In this document: piece by piece, positions 1 to 5,605 of the stretch
Layout: each line of letters begins with the position of its first letter
How positions within the stretch are numbered: the first letter of the stretch is position 1
Assembly: GCA_964457525.1 (NCBI GenBank)
Contig: CAYWGS010000088.1
Span: forward strand, 638-6,242
DNA from: an uncultured Erysipelotrichaceae bacterium
GTDB lineage: Bacteria > Bacillota_I > Bacilli_A > Erysipelotrichales > Erysipelotrichaceae
Direction of reading: 5' to 3'
DNA length: 5,605 nt
The notes under the pieces: generated by a model
Told to the model about the DNA's origin: nothing
The model's database searches: none
The model's input: the letters and a program-made list of their open reading frames with translations, nothing else
Made by a program: the position numbers and the translations under genes

Positions 1-368
1 ATACATGGAAAGCGATCTTTTTTAGTAAAATTTGGTTTATACAGATTCGCCGTTACGTAGATTTTTTCTAAAGATTCGAATACGATATTTTCACGCGAAT
101 AAAATTCGTACTTGTCTACCTTAACAAGTTTCGCATTCAGTGATTTTGTTGTATATGGTATGTCACCTAACGCTTTGAGAACTGATACTTCAATCCAAGA
201 TTGATGTTTCTTAAGATCTGATATTAGTTTTATTGATTTCTTTTTACGATCTCTTTTCTTAAATGCGTTATGAGAACGATTAATAATCATTTGATTTAAT
301 TGATCCTTAGAATCAACATTTAAGAGACCATGGTATGATAAATCTTCAATTTCTTTTAATATTTTCAT
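1..368 (-). CDS. Probable alpha/beta-hydrolase-type esterase (acetyl-esterase / dienelactone-hydrolase-like); N-terminal 122 codons only, 3' end beyond window start
   Basis: Not in the supplied ORF track because it has no stop in the window. My hand translation of the reverse complement from ATG (368..366) is stop-free to position 1: MKILKEIEDLSYHGLLNVDSKDQLNQMIINRSHNAFKKRDRKKKSIKLISDLKKHQSWIEVSVLKALGDIPYTTKSLNAKLVKVDKYEFYSRENIVFESLEKIYVTANLYKPNFTKKDRFPC. A helical leader followed by '..Y..E.IVFES....V.ANLYKP......FP' resembles the segment preceding the core of acetylxylan-esterase/dienelactone-hydrolase-like alpha/beta hydrolases. The GxSxG nucleophile elbow would lie outside the window, so the family call is tentative. 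The ATG overlaps the upstream TGA (ATGA at 365..368), supporting real translation. Confidence 0.55.
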   Translation of the reverse strand, partial: MKILKEIEDLSYHGLLNVDSKDQLNQMIINRSHNAFKKRDRKKKSIKLISDLKKHQSWIEVSVLKALGDIPYTTKSLNAKLVKVDKYEFYSRENIVFESLEKIYVTANLYKPNFTKKDRFPC

Positions 369-1297
369 AGAAAGTTTAAATCATCAACCCTTATACAAGG
401 GTAATGTCCTCTCTTATTTAAATCACCAAATATATCCAAAGCACTAAGTTTTAAATTAGGGTTTATAACTTTCATTGTTCCAGTAATAGGAGTTGAAAAT
501 GTATAATCTTGGTGTTTTTTAACTACTTCTGTCGTCCGATAGAATAATTTGTCGCAATCGTTTTTAACAGCAAAATCCTCATTCATATCAACAATTAATT
601 TTAAATTACCCACACTCTCTATAACATAAGCAATCTTAATATCGCCTTCAAATCCAATTCTAATGCATGAGAATGATTGATAATTCAAATCATGTATAAC
701 ATAGTTATGCTCATTATTTAGTGGTTCTAAATGACCTTGAATCATTTTTTTTGTTTCATCTAAGGTTCTGAAAAATTTCGGTAATGTTTTAAGTTCATAG
801 GCATTGTAGTATTTTTCAACTTCTAATTCCTCAATATGCTCAATAATTTTGTATTCTAATTGAGTGACATTTAGCTTTTCTTTAGGTACATGAACTTCGT
901 ATATTTGCCCTACAATCATGGCCCCAAATTTAAGATAATTCTTTCCATCACCTGAAATAACTAATAAATCTGTTTTATTACTTAGTTCTTTTTCAATGTA
1001 ATTGAGAATGCTAGTTGAAAATCCATTTCCTTGAAAATCTTTATATGTACAAACCGCTCCTAACATTCTCGTATTTAAAGTTAAATTAAGGAAATCAATC
1101 TTTGTAGGATAAGTTGCGATGAAACTTACTAATTGACCGTTATAAAAAGCTCCAAACAAATTATCGATATTGCACTCATTAAAGACATGCGGATATCGTC
1201 GTTCAAAAAATGATTCGCACTTAAAAAATACAGTATTACATAATTTATAAGCCATCTCTATTTCTTTTTGATTTTTTAAAGTGCGAATTTCATTCAT
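365..1297 (-). CDS. GNAT-family N-acetyltransferase domain (about residues 1-135) fused to a ~170-aa C-terminal region of unclear function (possibly Eis-like architecture)
   Basis: 310-aa ORF. The acetyl-CoA motif A-like sequence Q-G-N-G-F-S (residues 89-94, nt 1016..1033) follows a beta-strand-like 'MLGAVCTYKDF' and is followed by a helix 'TSILNYIEKEL', then 'LLVISGDGKNYLKFGA'. This is the typical GNAT core order. A GGAG Shine-Dalgarno lies 9 nt upstream. The start codon directly abuts the upstream stop (TAAATG). The C-terminal half has no motif I can assign by eye. Confidence 0.7.
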   Translation of the reverse strand: MNEIRTLKNQKEIEMAYKLCNTVFFKCESFFERRYPHVFNECNIDNLFGAFYNGQLVSFIATYPTKIDFLNLTLNTRMLGAVCTYKDFQGNGFSTSILNYIEKELSNKTDLLVISGDGKNYLKFGAMIVGQIYEVHVPKEKLNVTQLEYKIIEHIEELEVEKYYNAYELKTLPKFFRTLDETKKMIQGHLEPLNNEHNYVIHDLNYQSFSCIRIGFEGDIKIAYVIESVGNLKLIVDMNEDFAVKNDCDKLFYRTTEVVKKHQDYTFSTPITGTMKVINPNLKLSALDIFGDLNKRGHYPCIRVDDLNFL

Positions 1298-2476
1298 TTA
1301 AGTTAACTCCACAAATACTTTTGTTTCAATGCTTTCATCAGCACAGAAGGATAATAGTGAAGCTCTAAGACCATCTTCGACTGAAGCTACTGGTTTTGTT
1401 TGATTGATGATACATTCTGTAAATTCTTTGACAACTTGAGTATCACCTCCACCATGAAAATTCATTCCTGAAATATGATACTTCTCTGTTTGATTTCTTC
1501 GATAATCCATTTTAGTTAGATTCCCTTCTTCTAAATCACCAAAAATAAGACCATATTCAAAATGTATCATAATATCTCTTCCATCTTTTCCACTCATCGA
1601 AATAACGTTAAATATTCCATGTGTATTATCATCAAATAAAACCATGACTGTTTGAGAATCATTTATATCAGAAGTATTACCGTAGATACATTCATTAACT
1701 CCACCAGCTGTTTTGTCTAAAAGCACTTTACCATCATGATATTTCGCGTATTGTGTGATGTCCTCTCGATAAATACATTTTTTATCTGGGCATGTTGAAC
1801 AACTTACTTGCCCTACAGATTCACGCGCAAATGTACGCGACCCCATGGACATTACACCAATTGGCTTTGCATCATTTGATTTAATCCAACACATCATGTC
1901 CAGATCATGTGAACATTTTTCGTTCATGAAACCACCCGTATATTCTTTCATTCTATGCCAACTACGCTTGAATTTAGTTCCATGAACAACTGTTAGTCTT
2001 TCATTCATTTGAATTTGTGTGATTCTTCCTAAATCATTCTCCGCAATCCATGATTTTATCTTTCTATAGAAAGGAGAATAACGCATAACAAATCCTACTT
2101 GAATAACTTTTGAATAATTCTTTGCGATTTCTCCAATTTCTAATATGGCTTCTTTAGTTGTAGCGATTGGTTTTTCAAGAAAAATATTATAGTTTGATTG
2201 TGTTAGTCGTTTAAAAACTGATAAATGTGTCCACTCTGGTGTCATAATAAACGCACCATCTACTTTATCACTAGGATACTTTTCTAACATTAATTCAATA
2301 TCATTAAAGATTTCTACACCTTCAATCTTTGCGTCTTTTAATCTAGCTTCGATAAAAGGATTACCTTCCACAAAGGTATCCATAATAGCGACAACTTTAC
2401 AATTTAATTCGTTTTCAAGTATTTCCGAGAAGAAAATACCACGAGCTCCCCCACCAACAATAATAAATTTTTGCAT
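1298..2476 (-). CDS. Gfo/Idh/MocA-family NAD-dependent oxidoreductase, paralog 3 (392 aa), with 4-Cys insert
   Basis: The N-terminus starts directly with Rossmann beta1 and the glycine motif IIVGGGARG (G-x-G-x-x-G). An acidic residue ends beta2 (VVAIMD, Asp33), which suggests NAD over NADP. The family-defining EKP motif is present (FLEKP, residues 100-103), as are the active-site helix EKCSHDLD (186-193) and the C-terminal HGGGD (341-345, nt 1442..1456). No signal peptide. An AAGGAA Shine-Dalgarno lies 8 nt upstream of the ATG. Confidence 0.9.
   Translation of the reverse strand: MQKFIIVGGGARGIFFSEILENELNCKVVAIMDTFVEGNPFIEARLKDAKIEGVEIFNDIELMLEKYPSDKVDGAFIMTPEWTHLSVFKRLTQSNYNIFLEKPIATTKEAILEIGEIAKNYSKVIQVGFVMRYSPFYRKIKSWIAENDLGRITQIQMNERLTVVHGTKFKRSWHRMKEYTGGFMNEKCSHDLDMMCWIKSNDAKPIGVMSMGSRTFARESVGQVSCSTCPDKKCIYREDITQYAKYHDGKVLLDKTAGGVNECIYGNTSDINDSQTVMVLFDDNTHGIFNVISMSGKDGRDIMIHFEYGLIFGDLEEGNLTKMDYRRNQTEKYHISGMNFHGGGDTQVVKEFTECIINQTKPVASVEDGLRASLLSFCADESIETKVFVELT
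1307..1312 (-). promoter_or_regulatory. Shine-Dalgarno (GTGGAG) for the GNAT gene, embedded in the last codons of paralog 3
   Basis: The minus-strand mRNA reads GTGGAGTTAACTTAAATG. GGAG lies 9 nt before the ATG at 1297, and the stop TAA directly abuts the ATG. Confidence 0.65.
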
Positions 2477-2484
2477 ATTAATAG

Positions 2485-2490
2485 TTCCTT
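2485..2490 (-). promoter_or_regulatory. Shine-Dalgarno (AAGGAA) for oxidoreductase paralog 3
   Basis: The 24-nt spacer reads ACATAACATAAAGGAACTATTAAT on the minus strand, followed by ATG. AAGGAA lies 8 nt from the start. Confidence 0.7.
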
Positions 2491-2500
2491 TATGTTATGT

Positions 2501-3724
2501 TTATCTTTTAAATTCTTCAATATGAACAACACGATTTTCCGCCAGAGATAAATTTATAGCCATTCCAATATATGCTGCATTGAATCCAGCTTCACTATTT
2601 GCCATATGATTGAGAGGATCCGTTATGATCTTGTTCGCAAAAATCATCTCCATCATGCGATCATCTCCACCACCATGACTTCCACTAGATACGGGTACAT
2701 TTATTTCTTTTTTATTCCCGTTATCATCATATACATTTAACAGATAAATTTGTTTATTTGCATATGGTCCAACTAAACCATGAAAATCTTCTGCTTCAAT
2801 TCTACCCTTGTCACCTGTGATACTTAATCGGTAACCTTCATATGGAGCATAAGCAATAAGCTTATAGCTCATATCTATATTATCTTCATAGCTAATAAGT
2901 GCGGTTATTGTATCTTCTATATCAATTTTTTCTGAGTATACACACCCATCTCTAAAATAACCATCTTCATGTTCTGCTTGATAAAACATAGAATTAATTG
3001 CTTCATCATTTGAATAATCTTTATAAAATTTACATTCATTCTTATGTAAACATACTCTACAGTTTATTCCATTAAATAAACTATTCTTTGCGCCATAGAA
3101 ATATAACCCACCTTTTGCATATACTTCTATAGGTTTTTTCTCTATTAACCAATTGATTAAATCAAAATGATGAGTTGCTTTATGAACCGCTAACCCACCT
3201 GAATTCTTTTTTTCTCGATGCCATCTTCTAAAATAATCTGCACCATGTACTTGATCCAATAACCACTCAAAATGAATGCTTTTAATTTTTCCAATTGAAT
3301 GCGATTTAAGTGTTTCTTTTATAGTAGTCGCAAATAATGTAAAACGATAATTAAATGTAATCGTAAGTTTCTTCTGTGTTTCCTTCTCCGCATTTATAAT
3401 AATATTAGCCTTCTCTTTTGTTGTTGTGATTGGTTTCTCGCAAATAACATCACATCCTAATCTCATTGCTAAATCAATATAATAATCATGAGTCGCATCT
3501 AATGTACCAATTAAAACAGTATCACATCCACTTTCACTAATTAATGCCTCAGCGCTACTATAAACTTTTACTTTATTTTCTAATCGTTCACTTAGTTTAT
3601 TTGCTCTAGTCATGTTCTGATCAAATACACCTACAATAGTGACTGTATCTTGAAACTTTAGATATAAATTCAATGCATATTGAAAAGTTATACGATTTCC
3701 TGCTCCAATTAATGCTAATTTCAT
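2501..3724 (-). CDS. Gfo/Idh/MocA-family oxidoreductase, paralog 2 (407 aa), with 4-Cys insert and an atypical glycine motif
   Basis: MKLALIGAGNRI (G-x-G-x-x-I; the third glycine is replaced). Asp35 ends beta2 (IVGVFD). EKP motif present (ICEKP, residues 94-98). Active-site helix HKATHHFD (181-188) and HGGGD (350-354, nt 2663..2677). A strong AAGGAG Shine-Dalgarno lies 8 nt upstream. The ATG overlaps the stop of the upstream gene (ATGA, 3721..3724). Confidence 0.9.
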   Translation of the reverse strand: MKLALIGAGNRITFQYALNLYLKFQDTVTIVGVFDQNMTRANKLSERLENKVKVYSSAEALISESGCDTVLIGTLDATHDYYIDLAMRLGCDVICEKPITTTKEKANIIINAEKETQKKLTITFNYRFTLFATTIKETLKSHSIGKIKSIHFEWLLDQVHGADYFRRWHREKKNSGGLAVHKATHHFDLINWLIEKKPIEVYAKGGLYFYGAKNSLFNGINCRVCLHKNECKFYKDYSNDEAINSMFYQAEHEDGYFRDGCVYSEKIDIEDTITALISYEDNIDMSYKLIAYAPYEGYRLSITGDKGRIEAEDFHGLVGPYANKQIYLLNVYDDNGNKKEINVPVSSGSHGGGDDRMMEMIFANKIITDPLNHMANSEAGFNAAYIGMAINLSLAENRVVHIEEFKR

Positions 3725-4965
3725 ATATCAATCTCCTTCTCAAAAGCTTCTAAATCAATAACTCTATGATTTATACGAGAGGATTCTGCTGCTAATGACA
3801 TTAAATGACTCATTATTGATTTATCTACAGAAGTACGACCATTTTTAACATTGTTCTCTTGTACTTCTTCAATGAATCCTTTTATAATGCCTGCATCTCC
3901 ACCTTCATGTAGTGAATCAGACTCTCCGATTTGTATAATTCTTTCTTCTGATTCATCATAACGCTTTACAGTAATCTTTCGATCTAAAGTATTTCCACGT
4001 ATTTCTCCTTCAGTCCCCATTAAATGCATATATCTTGATATTTCATCCGTAAATGCGCACAAATGAAAACTAACATGAACGCCATTTTCAAATTCAAGCA
4101 AAGTCACTTGTGTTTCCATAACATCATTATCTAAGTCATAAACACATCTACCATAATCTGATACTTCAAACCCTTTCTCTAAACTACCGTACTCATTTAC
4201 AATAATTTTAGCTAGGTGTTGAGCTTTTTCTTGTTTATAAAGTTTATTGACTTCATATAAGCAACTTTTTGCATGTGGGCAATGTTCTCCACATCGAGCT
4301 GGTACCCCCTTTGGTTTATTCATTTGTATAAATGTATTTTGAACACCAAAAGATGAGACTCGTGTACACTTTGAATCAACATACCAAGCCATTAAATCCA
4401 TATCATGACAAGCCTTAGCTAATATAATTGGATTTGCCATATCAGATCTATTCCATGGTCCTCTCACAAAACTATGTGCATAATGATAATATGCTATATT
4501 TTCCTCATGTTGTATGCTTTTAAGTTCACCTATTACTTTTTCTTCTAGCAAATGTTTTACAACACCGAAGAAATCTGAGTATCTTAATACGTGTGCAATC
4601 GATAAGATTCTTTCTTGTGACTTAGCATGCTCTCGCAAATTAATTAACTCTTGTTTAGAACCTGAGATTGGTTTCTCTAATAGGACATGATAGCCTTTTG
4701 ATAAAGCTCTCATAGTTGGTTCATAATGCATAAAATCCTGTGTTGCTATTATAGCTGCATCTGCTAATTTCTCAACTTCAAGAATAGATTCCCACGAATC
4801 ATAACATGCATCCAGTGGTATATTAAACTCACGAGAAAACCGAAGACGTTTATTAAGATTAGGATCCGCCATTGCTACAAAAGAAACATCTGGATGGTTA
4901 TTTTTTACCCAATGAGCATATATTTCCATGCCGCGGTTACCCGCGCCAATTAGTATTAATTTCAT
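3721..4965 (-). CDS. Gfo/Idh/MocA-family NAD-dependent oxidoreductase, paralog 1 (414 aa), with 4-Cys insert
   Basis: MKLILIGAGNRG (G-x-G-x-x-G). Asp34 ends beta2 (FVAMAD). EKP motif present (LLEKP, residues 95-99, EKP at nt 4669..4677). Active-site helix AKACHDMD (183-190) and HEGGD (353-357, nt 3895..3909). An AAGGA Shine-Dalgarno lies 7 nt upstream of the ATG. No signal peptide. Confidence 0.9.
   Translation of the reverse strand: MKLILIGAGNRGMEIYAHWVKNNHPDVSFVAMADPNLNKRLRFSREFNIPLDACYDSWESILEVEKLADAAIIATQDFMHYEPTMRALSKGYHVLLEKPISGSKQELINLREHAKSQERILSIAHVLRYSDFFGVVKHLLEEKVIGELKSIQHEENIAYYHYAHSFVRGPWNRSDMANPIILAKACHDMDLMAWYVDSKCTRVSSFGVQNTFIQMNKPKGVPARCGEHCPHAKSCLYEVNKLYKQEKAQHLAKIIVNEYGSLEKGFEVSDYGRCVYDLDNDVMETQVTLLEFENGVHVSFHLCAFTDEISRYMHLMGTEGEIRGNTLDRKITVKRYDESEERIIQIGESDSLHEGGDAGIIKGFIEEVQENNVKNGRTSVDKSIMSHLMSLAAESSRINHRVIDLEAFEKEIDI
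3733..3738 (-). promoter_or_regulatory. Shine-Dalgarno (AAGGAG) for oxidoreductase paralog 2, embedded in the last codons of paralog 1
   Basis: The minus-strand mRNA reads GAGAAGGAGATTGATATATGA. AAGGAG lies 8 nt before the ATG at 3724, and the ATG overlaps the upstream TGA. Confidence 0.8.
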
Positions 4966-4972
4966 AATAATA

Positions 4973-4977
4973 TCCTT
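4973..4977 (-). promoter_or_regulatory. Shine-Dalgarno (AAGGA) for oxidoreductase paralog 1
   Basis: The minus-strand mRNA reads TAGAAGGATATTATTATG. AAGGA lies 7 nt before the ATG at 4965 and immediately after the permease stop codon. Confidence 0.75.
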
Positions 4978-5605
4978 CTAGCCTTTTACAGCCCCTATAG
5001 TTGCACCTGCGACAACTCGTTTTTGGAAAATGGCATAAATCACTAATGTTGGAACAAGTGATATTACAATTGCCGCAAAGAGTGTGACGTAATTTGACGT
5101 ATACCTTAAAACTGTATTCGCATAATAAACACTTACAGCAACTGTGTGTTTACTTGGATCTGTAAGATAAATAAACGGATTGATAAAATCATTATATAAA
5201 TTTAAGAATCTAAAGATTGAAATTGTAATTATACCTGGCATAGATAAAGGAAAAATGATTTTCCAGAATATAACCCACATAGTCGCCCCATCAATTCGAG
5301 CACTTTCTTCTAATTCCTTTGGTATGCTACGCATAAAACTACTCATTAATAAAATATCAAAGGCACTTAATGCAACATTTATAAGTAATATCAACCCAGT
5401 TAGAGAGTTATTTAGTTTAAAAAATACAGCTAATACATATTGTGGAACTAGTATGTTTATACCTGGCAAGAATAGTGACAACATTATTAATCCTAAAATA
5501 AACTTCTTCCCTTTCCATTCTAGTCGAGTCAAAATATATGCAGCTAATGTATTAACAGCAACTCCTACAATTAAACCACCAAATACAAAATAGAGTGTAT
5601 TTAGA
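4978..5605 (-). CDS. Carbohydrate ABC transporter permease (CUT1 family, MalG/LplC-type); C-terminal ~209 codons, N-terminus beyond window end
   Basis: The EAA loop of binding-protein-dependent permeases is present: EESARIDGATMWVIFWKIIFPLSMPG. Flanking segments are hydrophobic and TM-like, and the protein ends in GAVKG as many Firmicute sugar permeases do. The track starts the ORF at a TTG (5532..5530), but I translated the same frame upstream (5533..5604) and it stays open: ..LNTLYFVFGGLIVGVAVNTLAAYI-LTRLEWKGKK. This is the usual TM helix and 'AAY..R..fkGk' cytoplasmic turn of MalG-like proteins, so the real gene continues past 5605. Confidence 0.9.
   Translation of the reverse strand, partial: LNTLYFVFGGLIVGVAVNTLAAYILTRLEWKGKKFILGLIMLSLFLPGINILVPQYVLAVFFKLNNSLTGLILLINVALSAFDILLMSSFMRSIPKELEESARIDGATMWVIFWKIIFPLSMPGIITISIFRFLNLYNDFINPFIYLTDPSKHTVAVSVYYANTVLRYTSNYVTLFAAIVISLVPTLVIYAIFQKRVVAGATIGAVKG

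Follow-up and report, generated by a model that had tools for sequence, protein, structure and literature searches.

What would a bacterium do with three different sugar dehydrogenases, an acetyltransferase and an esterase, all encoded in one direction behind a sugar permease? The question is raised by a stretch of 5,605 nucleotides (nt; hereafter, the window) from an uncultured Erysipelotrichaceae bacterium (GenBank assembly GCA_964457525.1, contig CAYWGS010000088.1, positions 638 to 6,242 of the forward strand), at the center of which lie the genes for three proteins of the Gfo/Idh/MocA superfamily, here denoted GFO-A, GFO-B and GFO-C. The answer that we favor, with a probability of roughly 0.45, is that the window represents the core of a cytoplasmic catabolic operon in which the GFO proteins cleave glycosides of uronic acids or hexosamines with the help of an NAD cofactor, aided by de-esterification and N-acetylation. 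The first-pass annotation of this DNA had suggested oxidative processing or cleavage of a decorated glycoside or an aminocyclitol; NAD-dependent cleavage of a decorated glycoside is, indeed, the reading favored by the evidence, whereas an aminocyclitol substrate gained no support.

Proteins of the Gfo/Idh/MocA superfamily rank with the commonest "predicted dehydrogenases" of carbohydrate loci, and metagenome surveys increasingly tag them as members of the glycoside hydrolase (GH) families GH109, GH177 and GH179, labels that have almost no biochemistry behind them.

Three deep paralogs with a common signature

Each of the three proteins, GFO-A (414 amino acids (aa); 3721..4965), GFO-B (407 aa; 2501..3724) and GFO-C (392 aa; 1298..2476), all encoded on the minus strand, matches PF01408, PF02894 and PF22725 above the Pfam cut-offs and carries the EKP lysine, which places all three in the Gfo/Idh/MocA superfamily, as deep paralogs with pairwise identities of 22-24%. 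Because each begins directly at the beta-1 strand of the Rossmann fold, none has a signal peptide, and all are predicted to be cytoplasmic; the aspartate at the end of beta-2 suggests that they are NAD-type enzymes.

A common signature runs through the three sequences: the EKP motif, a glutamate after beta-6, an H...W-[HN]-R loop, K-x-x-H-x-x-D, and H-[GE]-G-G-D near the C terminus. In GFO-A, the recognizable motifs are GAGNRG (7-12), EKP (97-99), WNR (171-173), KACHDMD (184-190) and HEGGD (353-357); in GFO-B, EKP (96-98), E153, the H160...WHR170 loop, KATHHFD (182-188) and HGGGD (350-354); and in GFO-C, EKP (101-103), E159, WHR (173-175), E186 followed by KCSHDLD (187-193), and HGGGD (341-345). 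The insert that had been noticed in these ~400-aa proteins on first inspection is real: it spans approximately residues 207-270 (in GFO-B, 2915..3106 on the minus strand) and contains four cysteines in the pattern Cx2-3Cx4-5C, with the fourth in C(V/I)Y. These are the cluster C225/C229/C235 plus C274 in GFO-A, C222/C225/C231/C261 in GFO-B, and C226/C229/C234/C263 in GFO-C. In the AlphaFold model of GFO-B (predicted local distance difference test score, pLDDT, 94.9), the insert is mostly coil, yet modeled with pLDDT >90, and it may hold a structural metal (Zn or Fe-S).

Across 32 sequences of the GFO-B family, down to 43% identity, the signature residues and all four cysteines are invariant, and across 45 sequences of the GFO-C family, down to 26% identity, the signature residues are 87-100% conserved. 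The GFO-B family is very large, with at least 7,642 members at E<=1e-10 (7,642 of the 8,000 candidates scored) and more than 576 relatives in GTDB species genomes, spread over Bacillota, Chloroflexota, Acidobacteriota, Bacteroidota and Armatimonadota (loci L024 and L030); GFO-C belongs to a smaller clade, with 70 cluster representatives at E<=1e-30 among 1.84e9. In the source databases, the relatives are called "predicted dehydrogenase" or "Gfo/Idh/MocA family oxidoreductase" and nothing more, and no homolog assigned to a biochemically defined pathway was found. No recorded contig turned up when GFO-B was looked up by its exact sequence. PDB sequence alignments of the GFO proteins cover only the N-terminal ~200 residues, those of GFO-B ending at approximately residue 205-215, and the C-terminal half of GFO-B, insert included, matches nothing among PDB sequences even when E values up to 10 are allowed. 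As far as sequence comparison goes, the four-cysteine clade is large and sharply defined, and is matched by no solved structure or named family in the searches that were run.

The enzymes to which the GFO proteins show a recognizable relationship include SqgA, the NAD-dependent sulfoquinovosidase of family GH188. SqgA structures are the best PDB sequence matches of GFO-C (8qc2, E 2.5e-13; 8qc3, 1.3e-11), 8qc2 shares the top with 3e18 in the case of GFO-B, and GFO-A matches 3e18 (5e-13), YjhC (2e-9) and 8qc2 (9e-7), with the N-terminal half alone aligned. When the GFO-B model is compared with known structures using Foldseek, the GH188 entries 8qc8, 8qc2, 8qc6 and 8zn9 come out on top (E ~2e-24, template modeling (TM) score 0.69-0.78). 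In the paper describing SqgA, Lys107, Tyr136, Glu163, Glu189, His193 and His321 are implicated in catalysis and binding, and His193 and His321 are equated with His259 and His404 of GH109, the latter being the acid/base residue in a GGHGG loop. HMMER alignment with 8qc2 and 8qc3 indicates that four of these positions are kept: the EKP lysine corresponds to Lys107, E153/E159 of GFO-B/GFO-C to Glu163, H185/H190 to His193, and H350/H341 to His321. The position of Glu189, four residues before the His193 equivalent, is occupied by E, H or A in the GFO proteins, with the E-K-C-x-H of GFO-C identical in pattern to SqgA, and the loop around His321 reads GAHHGS in SqgA versus GSHGGGD in the GFO proteins.

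CAZy recognizes four families of NAD-dependent enzymes with the GFO fold, namely, GH109, GH177, GH179 and GH188, the founding members of GH177 and GH179 being Tannerella SiaHI and the archaeal protein QFQ13829.1, and the Armatimonadota are reported to be rich in GH109, GH177 and GH179 annotations. As judged by comparison with GH188 and GH109, the three proteins of the window probably cleave glycosides with the help of an NAD cofactor and may fall outside the families described so far. In agreement with the first-pass view, the operon is not of the iol, thu, ycj or ntd type. With the IolG model TIGR04380, whose cut-off is 355 bits, the three proteins score 59.8, 98.4 and 83.2 bits, with only the N-terminal ~200 residues aligned, and no iol genes occur in the longer loci L001, L081 and L094 described below; the BT_2158 and BT_2159 models of NCBIfam yield 23-33 bits against cut-offs of 650-750, and the scores with the levoglucosan dehydrogenase and UDP-GlcNAc 3-dehydrogenase models are also far under the cut-offs. 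With equivalog scores this low and the partner genes missing, the iol, thu, ycj, ntd and levoglucosan pathways were all rejected.

Exported orthologs and their gene neighborhoods

The genomic contexts of 80 retrieved GFO-B orthologs present another facet of the story. Clear twin-arginine (Tat) signals, such as SINRRDFVKSAAATAASVLLANALPVSA, are found in ~23 of the 80, in Acidobacteriota and in Bacteroidota, including Runella, Paraflavitalea and Ferruginibacter (among the loci concerned are L025, L035, L037, L040, L054, L058, L066, L068, L071 and L079, at ~9,800-11,200). The neighbors of these exported forms are GH28 (in part with GDSL), pectinesterase (CE8) and pectate lyase, GDSL esterase, GH88/105, cupin and GntR genes, as well as UxaC or UxaE. 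Given that the periplasm has no NAD(H) pool, a Tat-exported GFO-B must keep its cofactor bound, an argument that has also been made for the periplasmic AL3 and BT3 enzymes. The exported orthologs thus argue against a simple NADH-consuming reductase and favor C3 oxidation within glycoside cleavage. In our literature search, we found no description of a role of a periplasmic NAD enzyme in pectin breakdown.

In Clostridia, the most common neighbor of GFO-B is a NagB-like gene, present in 15 of the 80 loci, usually directly downstream, 45-55% identical and often followed by an esterase and NagA. In locus L002, GFO-A, GFO-B, a NagB-like gene and a UxaE tagaturonate epimerase (E 1e-191) lie behind an ABC importer. 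A separate case of three GFO genes behind a permease, with another make-up of paralogs, occurs in L067 (9995-13945), from an Oscillospiraceae gut metagenome-assembled genome (MAG), where three tandem GFO-B-type paralogs, each ~40% identical to GFO-B, are preceded by genes for an ABC importer and a hydrolase of the beta-lactamase family and are followed by a NagB-like gene and a fourth GFO. Acidic sugars, whether uronic or not, and amino sugars are the consistent theme of the GFO-B contexts, which nevertheless vary from one to the next, and the family may not be isofunctional.

Several observations weigh against cofactor-assisted glycoside cleavage. The Foldseek margin is small, with 1,5-anhydrofructose reductase (AFR, 2glx; 1.8e-23), YjhC (2.4e-23) and RgNanOx close behind GH188. 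Tyr136 of SqgA is not kept: GFO-A has L and GFO-C has M at this position, which varies among Y, V, A and C across the GFO-B family. Also absent are the two residues that bind the sulfonate, Arg166 and Lys172 (Leu/Asp and Gly/Ala in GFO-B, other residues in GFO-A and GFO-C), so that the three proteins are not sulfoquinovosidases. Among the PDB sequence matches of GFO-A, GFO-B and GFO-C at E<=1e-3, there is no GH109 or N-acetylgalactosaminidase entry, and the top 50 Foldseek matches of the GFO-B model include no GH109 structure. We found no biochemically characterized member of the four-cysteine clade, and of 31 Fervidibacter enzymes annotated as GH109, GH177 or GH179 and expressed in E. coli, none was active. 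The Tat signal itself is equally compatible with a 3-dehydrogenase that depends on partner enzymes and with a glycosidase that works alone. Finally, some contexts look monosaccharide-level, namely, an AraC-controlled two-gene unit of GFO-B and NagB-like; locus L031, where AraC and a transporter of the TAXI-TRAP type, which carries carboxylates, are encoded divergently from GFO-B, NagB-like, esterase and NagA; and a cluster of Amidohydro_2, GFO-B, PfkB and glycerate kinase genes in L091.

These contexts would fit a rival reading in which the GFO proteins are ordinary dehydrogenases or reductases that exchange NAD(H) and act on free monosaccharides released by other enzymes, for example, by reducing tagaturonate or fructuronate or by oxidizing hexosamines or uronates at C1 or C3, with a GH42-like protein encoded next to the window as the only glycosidase of the locus. 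The two-gene unit, the TRAP-linked operon of monosaccharide size and the lactonase-like Amidohydro_2/PfkB/glycerate kinase context would all be explained, and so would the generic family assignment, the NAD-type aspartate, and the direct adjacency of GFO-B to the producers of keto-uronates (UxaC, UxaE) or 2-ketoses (NagB-like). Furthermore, no UxaB or UxuB homolog lies within +/-10 kb in the pectin loci with GFO-B. Nevertheless, we consider this explanation somewhat unlikely. It leaves the Tat-exported orthologs without an NAD(H) pool; the window locus already encodes a bona fide UxaB; the HGGGD histidine and the glutamate in the base position, shared with SqgA, would be needless for simple keto-reduction; GFO-B of Acidobacteriota resides among depolymerases (GH28, PL, CE, GH105) rather than cytoplasmic catabolic genes; and three deep paralogs have been kept ~80% identical beside the GNAT and the esterase. 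The more specific possibility that GFO-B replaces UxaB/UxuB is disfavored by the Tat-exported orthologs together with the true UxaB in the window locus.

An alternative that retains C3 oxidation would cast the GFO proteins as glycoside 3-dehydrogenases of a multi-enzyme pathway of oxidation, elimination, hydration and reduction, of the type known from AL1-4, BT2156-2160, P2B11, DgpABC and levoglucosan degradation. One paralog would oxidize and another re-reduce the 3-keto sugar, and the lyase or hydratase would have gone unrecognized, possibly being the TIM barrel of the GH42-fold protein, whose acid/base glutamate is replaced by an invariant aspartate in a DDD motif. More than one GFO protein per cluster is typical of such pathways; the W-x-R plus histidine pocket is also present in the glycoside 3-dehydrogenases AL3 and P2B11-Oxido1; P2B11 cleaves, and prefers, glycosides with a negative charge at C6; and a search with the GFO-B profile detects 8tdi, the 405-aa glucuronide 3-dehydrogenase of P2B11, at E 1e-19. 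On balance, we regard such a pathway as unlikely: the three conserved loci described below contain no gene for a xylose-isomerase-like TIM barrel (AP_endonuc_2) or a DUF1080 protein, the BT_2158/BT_2159 scores are low, and the HGGGD histidine aligns with the acid/base histidine of self-contained glycosidases.

The locus around the window and its metabolic exits

Gene calling identifies six genes in the window, all on the minus strand and in one direction, and the tight packing reported on first inspection, with gaps of 0-24 nt or 4-nt overlaps, is confirmed by the gene calls and the operon structure. The permease and GFO-A genes are 12 nt apart, GFO-A and GFO-B overlap by 4 nt, GFO-B and GFO-C are separated by 24 nt, GFO-C directly adjoins the GNAT gene (0 nt), and the GNAT gene overlaps gene 6 by 4 nt; purine-rich ribosome-binding stretches are present at most of these five junctions. 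A scan of the window detected no terminator-like site on the coding strand and fewer promoter-like sites than in shuffled sequence (18 vs 32.7 +/- 6.7), and no Rfam match was found in the window, where G+C is ~30% and the GC skew is steadily negative. Upstream of the GFO genes lies the gene for a MalG-type permease (4978..5605, minus strand), represented by the C-terminal 208 aa, with the N terminus beyond the window edge (BPD_transp_1, E 4e-16); its best NCBIfam matches are GlcU, MalG and UgpE, each under the equivalog cut-off. Antisense to it runs a 137-aa open reading frame (ORF; 5180-5593, plus strand) of low-complexity composition and without support, which is almost certainly spurious. 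Downstream of the GFO genes come those for a GNAT acetyltransferase (310 aa; 365..1297, minus strand) and for a serine esterase, ABH641, of which the first 122 of 641 codons (1..368, minus strand) are encoded before the gene leaves the window.

The surroundings of these genes are visible in locus L001 (contig JAJZTY010000007.1 of the MAG Bacillota bacterium SKS3.bin96), positions 8120-13724 of which, reversed, correspond to the window at 99.6% identity, and in L081, a sediment contig that is near-identical to L001 and collinear with it. The locus comprises 19 genes over the ~21 kb seen. Its 5' part encodes a nucleoside hydrolase, a CMD-family protein, Eda, a KdgK-type PfkB kinase, an AraC regulator, a solute-binding protein (SBP) and two permeases; the middle part, GFO-A, GFO-B, GFO-C, the GNAT and the 641-aa esterase; and the 3' part, a NagB-like protein, a 646-aa protein, NagA, UxaB, a dehydratase of the UxaA/GarD family and a SIS protein of the AgaS family. 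Extending the contig, as the first-pass annotation had recommended, thus yields the SBP, the MalF-type permease and the AraC regulator; the TIM-barrel isomerase partner that was also sought is missing from the conserved loci.

On L001, the full MalG-type permease gene encodes 275 aa and is preceded by those for its MalF-type partner, the SBP and AraC. With two BPD_transp_1 permeases and a SBP_bac_1 binding protein, the importer is of the CUT1 type; the SBP resembles the CPR_0540 and NgcE families, under their cut-offs. No gene for an importer ATPase was found within the locus, and this subunit presumably comes in trans.

The absence of a glycosidase, kinase or isomerase that was remarked upon at first holds inside the window but reflects the window edges, which cut the locus: the flanks hold the GH42-fold protein, KdgK, and the NagB-like and AgaS-like proteins. 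The claim that no textbook pathway fits likewise applies to the front-end chemistry alone, because the flanking Eda, KdgK, NagA, NagB-like, UxaB, UxaA-like and AgaS-like genes make the end of the pathway a conventional one. Among the NCBIfam assignments, UxaB, the tagaturonate reductase, scores 472 bits against a cut-off of 359, Eda 242 against 156, and NagA is also above its cut-off, whereas the AgaS-family SIS protein and the NagB-like protein are both under theirs; the UxaA-like dehydratase (Pfam GD_AH) accompanies KdgK in the locus. The uronate theme is supported by UxaB, the UxaA-like dehydratase, KdgK and Eda, by the uronic-acid methyl-esterase that is the nearest structure of the esterase, and by UxaE or UxaC beside GFO-B elsewhere and the TAXI-TRAP transporter of L031; the amino-sugar theme is supported by NagA, NagB-like and the AgaS-like and AgaF-like genes. 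Neither UxaC nor a hexosamine kinase was found in the ~21 kb seen.

Recycling of peptidoglycan fragments, suggested by the SIS protein and by the beta-lactamase-family hydrolases beside GFO-B in L007 and L067, was rejected: it would not account for UxaB, UxaA, KdgK and Eda, and the SIS protein resembles AgaS rather than MurQ. The ORF for Eda, or KDPG aldolase (L001 2560-3513; L094 148-1101), is 317 aa long, with the aldolase domain ending at approximately residue 204-207 and a conserved C-terminal extension of ~110 aa, followed by a separate KdgK gene; a fused aldolase/kinase form of this pair exists in NCBIfam.

The same order, SBP-permease-permease, GFO-A, GFO-B, GFO-C, GNAT, esterase, GH42-like, is found in three lineages (L001/L081, L094/L095 and L096/L097). 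L094/L095 possess the whole locus, which in L094 continues with an AgaF-like EIIA and then a GatZ/KbaZ-like gene; L096/L097 have AraC, the SBP, two permeases, the three GFO genes, GNAT, esterase, a 650-aa protein and CMD, without NagA and NagB-like. The conserved core therefore consists of the transporter, the three GFO proteins, the GNAT, the esterase and the 646-aa protein. Between lineages, identity is 80-83% for GFO-A, 79-80% for GFO-B and 81-86% for GFO-C, compared with 65-68% for the 646-aa protein, 55-61% for the esterase and 49-56% for the GNAT; all three GFO proteins are kept under the strongest constraint and, consequently, are not redundant. The GNAT has 11 homologs among 5.8 billion proteins; contigs were retrieved for two of the more distant ones, P0238 and P0241 (49-50% identity to the window GNAT), and both show the same gene order, and a metagenome scan for the GNAT returned only L093, a 2.7-kb contig of a near-identical strain. 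One partial member of the 90% cluster of the GNAT carries the label Acholeplasmataceae; if the host is a wall-less relative of mollicutes, the retention of so large a glycan locus (19 genes) in a small genome would be of note.

The GNAT is of the Eis type, with a match to Acetyltransf_9 (PF13527) at 41.6 bits against a cut-off of 25 (E 1.5e-10) and an acetyl-CoA motif-A-like QGNGFS from residue 89 that fits Q/R-x-x-G-x-G/A/S. Its best PDB match is 2i00 at E 0.16, it has no close structural relative, and its C-terminal ~200 aa have no recognized fold. The Eis/Acetyltransf_9 family is known for acetylation of aminoglycosides, and GNATs are unusual in catabolic sugar operons, both of which would fit a locus whose purpose is to modify or inactivate a small glycoside, or a compound like an aminoglycoside, through oxidation, acetylation and removal of esters instead of using it as a nutrient. 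We regard this as very improbable, given that the operon is flanked by AraC, an SBP-dependent importer and the exits NagA, NagB-like, UxaB, UxaA-like, KdgK and Eda, that the locus has no biosynthetic or efflux genes, and that GFO-B orthologs reside in pectin loci.

The identification of gene 6 as an alpha/beta-hydrolase stands for the full 641-aa protein but could not be made from the 122 aa inside the window, which match no Pfam or NCBIfam family: the hydrolase domain begins at approximately residue 80-94, and its first ~30-40 residues are in the window. Full-length ABH641 matches AXE1 (E 4e-9) and the BT1017 methylesterase (6goc, E 6e-13), with CE7 acetyl-xylan esterases weaker, and its nucleophile motif GNSGGG fits GxSxGG, so that the hydrolase domain and the GxSxG(G) elbow of a serine carbohydrate esterase are both present in the full-length protein only. 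BT1017 is an alpha/beta-hydrolase pectin methylesterase that is active on 6-O-methyl galacturonic acid (GalA) and glucuronic acid (GlcA) and inactive on the acetylated substrates tested. With a uronic-acid methyl-esterase, not an acetyl-esterase, as the closest solved relative of ABH641, the homology supports an esterase, but neither the removal of acetyl groups nor a pairing of acetyl-adding and acetyl-removing enzymes is established.

The 646-aa protein (L001 16003-17943, plus strand), encoded ~2.3 kb past the low-coordinate end of the window, has no Pfam or NCBIfam match, Glyco_hydro_42 included; its family numbers over 100 proteins, annotated only as hypothetical. Its model (pLDDT 93.3) shows the three-domain architecture of GH42 (5e9a, E 1e-21, TM 0.62-0.69, 11-12% identity) and also matches GH164 and a GH35-like transferase. 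The family has an invariant DDDF...GCFCPLH, a DDD motif with a Cys/His cluster, which we take to correspond to the DNEY...CxCPxC region of GH42; with DDD at the NE position of GH42, the acid/base glutamate is replaced by aspartate. In Hungatella and other Clostridia, a homolog is paired with a sulfatase in a small ABC locus under two-component regulation, where no other gene resembles a glycosidase, and elsewhere homologs are paired with a metallophosphoesterase and a protein of the metallo-beta-lactamase (MBL) fold. From its predicted structure, the 646-aa protein is a candidate for a new family of clan GH-A.

The NagB-like protein (L001 15279-16013; L031 8504-9238; L002 11327-12097, next to UxaE at 12186-13763) is a member of the Glucosamine_iso family that matches B. 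subtilis NagB at 3e-28 and 6-phosphogluconolactonases at 2e-5. If E. coli NagB numbering is transferred to it, as we presume it can be, the aspartate of LDEY, the histidine of GHIxFN(D)P and the anion-binding positions Arg172 and Lys208 are kept, and Glu148 is replaced by aspartate. A lactonase was rejected in view of the much stronger NagB match and the retention of the deaminase motifs and anion-binding positions; by its sequence motifs, the protein is of the deaminase/isomerase type. It adjoins a tagaturonate epimerase or a TAXI-TRAP transporter and is found in loci that have neither UxaC nor a hexosamine kinase. Its substrate may carry a C6 carboxylate, not a C6 phosphate.

Under the favored scenario of cofactor-assisted cleavage, the AraC-regulated CUT1 importer would take up an acidic, esterified, hexosamine-containing oligosaccharide, probably composed of a galacto-configured uronic acid and N-acetylgalactosamine (GalNAc)/galactosamine (GalN) or N-acetylglucosamine (GlcNAc). 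The serine esterase would strip a blocking methyl or acetyl ester, and the GNAT could N-acetylate hexosamine residues with a free amine and so enable their processing, by analogy with lysosomal HGSNAT, which follows an acetylate-then-cleave logic. The GFO proteins would then hold NAD+ as a bound catalytic cofactor, with transient oxidation at C3 acidifying H2 and the glycosidic bond leaving by elimination, either in the manner of GH188 and GH109 or as the first enzyme of a multi-enzyme 3-keto pathway. Each paralog would take a different residue or linkage, and the GH42-fold protein might cut a further one. The amino sugar would exit via NagA, NagB-like and AgaS-like, and the uronate via UxaB, UxaA-like, KdgK and Eda.

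A bolder version of this scenario, which we consider quite unlikely, would make the four-cysteine clade, with its thousands of members from soil, gut and sediment, one or more unrecognized families of NAD+-cofactor glycoside hydrolases for C6-anionic glycosides, meaning those of uronic or amino-uronic acids; in this operon, they would operate with the GNAT on the acetylate-then-cleave principle. It would also have NagA-like and NagB-like enzymes convert an N-acetyl-amino-uronic acid (e.g., GalNAcA) to tagaturonate, bypassing UxaC and a hexosamine kinase. Speculatively, the amino-uronic acid would be deacetylated and then deaminated straight to tagaturonate. There is room for such a route because UxaC and a hexosamine kinase are missing from the ~21 kb, and the adjacency of NagB-like and UxaE and the TRAP context agree with it; a literature search returned nothing on the catabolism of galactosaminuronate.

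Comparison with known systems

The locus offers a compact and conserved test case for the many GFO proteins of carbohydrate loci: three non-redundant paralogs with the signature of four cysteines, HGGGD and K-x-x-H-x-x-D, accompanied by an esterase, a GNAT and an unclassified GH42-fold protein, and with clear metabolic exits. Should these proteins prove to be NAD-cofactor glycosidases, thousands of genes would have to be re-annotated, including the Tat-exported ones in the pectin loci of soil Acidobacteriota, and the locus would illustrate by what means bacteria deal with acidic glycans that are partly de-N-acetylated or esterified; if the proteins are plain dehydrogenases, the locus is an ordinary operon for sugar acids and amino sugars.

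Among the known NAD-dependent glycosidases, SqgA of GH188 (8qc2, 8qc3, 8qc5, 8qc6, 8qc8, 8zn9) shares with the GFO proteins the Gfo/Idh/MocA fold of ~390 aa, the lysine, glutamate and histidines at the catalytic positions named above and W-[NH]-R, but is only 16-18% identical to them and lacks the four-cysteine insert, and the context of the window locus is the catabolism of uronates and amino sugars, not sulfoglycolysis. With GH109, the common features are the fold and a histidine in a glycine-rich loop, which is the acid/base residue in GH109; GH109 uses an NAD+-cofactor mechanism, is exported via Tat in its Gram-negative members and is associated with the catabolism of N-acetylhexosamines. 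The loop motif is a different one (GGHGG in GH109 vs HGGGD/HEGGD in the GFO proteins), and the four-cysteine insert has not been described for GH109. Our literature search recovered nothing on YteT or on further families of NAD-dependent glycosidases. The multi-enzyme 3-keto pathways (AL1-4, BT2156-2160, P2B11) also have several GFO oxidoreductases per cluster, along with bound NAD and a C3 oxidation that primes elimination, whereas the window locus is devoid of the TIM-barrel lyase and the DUF1080 hydratase and adds the GNAT, the esterase and the GH42-fold protein.

The accessory proteins and the exits show the same mixture of likeness and difference. ABH641 shares the GxSxGG motif with BT1017 (6goc), its closest solved relative, but the alignment is limited to residues 80-342, there is no DUF3826 domain, and a C-terminal region of ~300 aa is left over. 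The 646-aa protein has the three-domain fold of the GH42 beta-galactosidases of clan GH-A and differs from them by the aspartate in place of the acid/base glutamate. The Ashwell pathway of uronate degradation is represented by UxaB, the UxaA-like dehydratase, KdgK and Eda, without UxaC, and the nag/aga pathways by NagA, a NagB homolog, an AgaS-family isomerase and an AgaF-like EIIA, without a hexosamine kinase. In its overall logic, then, the locus is a conventional glycan-utilization operon; what is new is the four-cysteine GFO clade, present as three paralogs together with a GNAT, a BT1017-like esterase and a GH42-fold protein.

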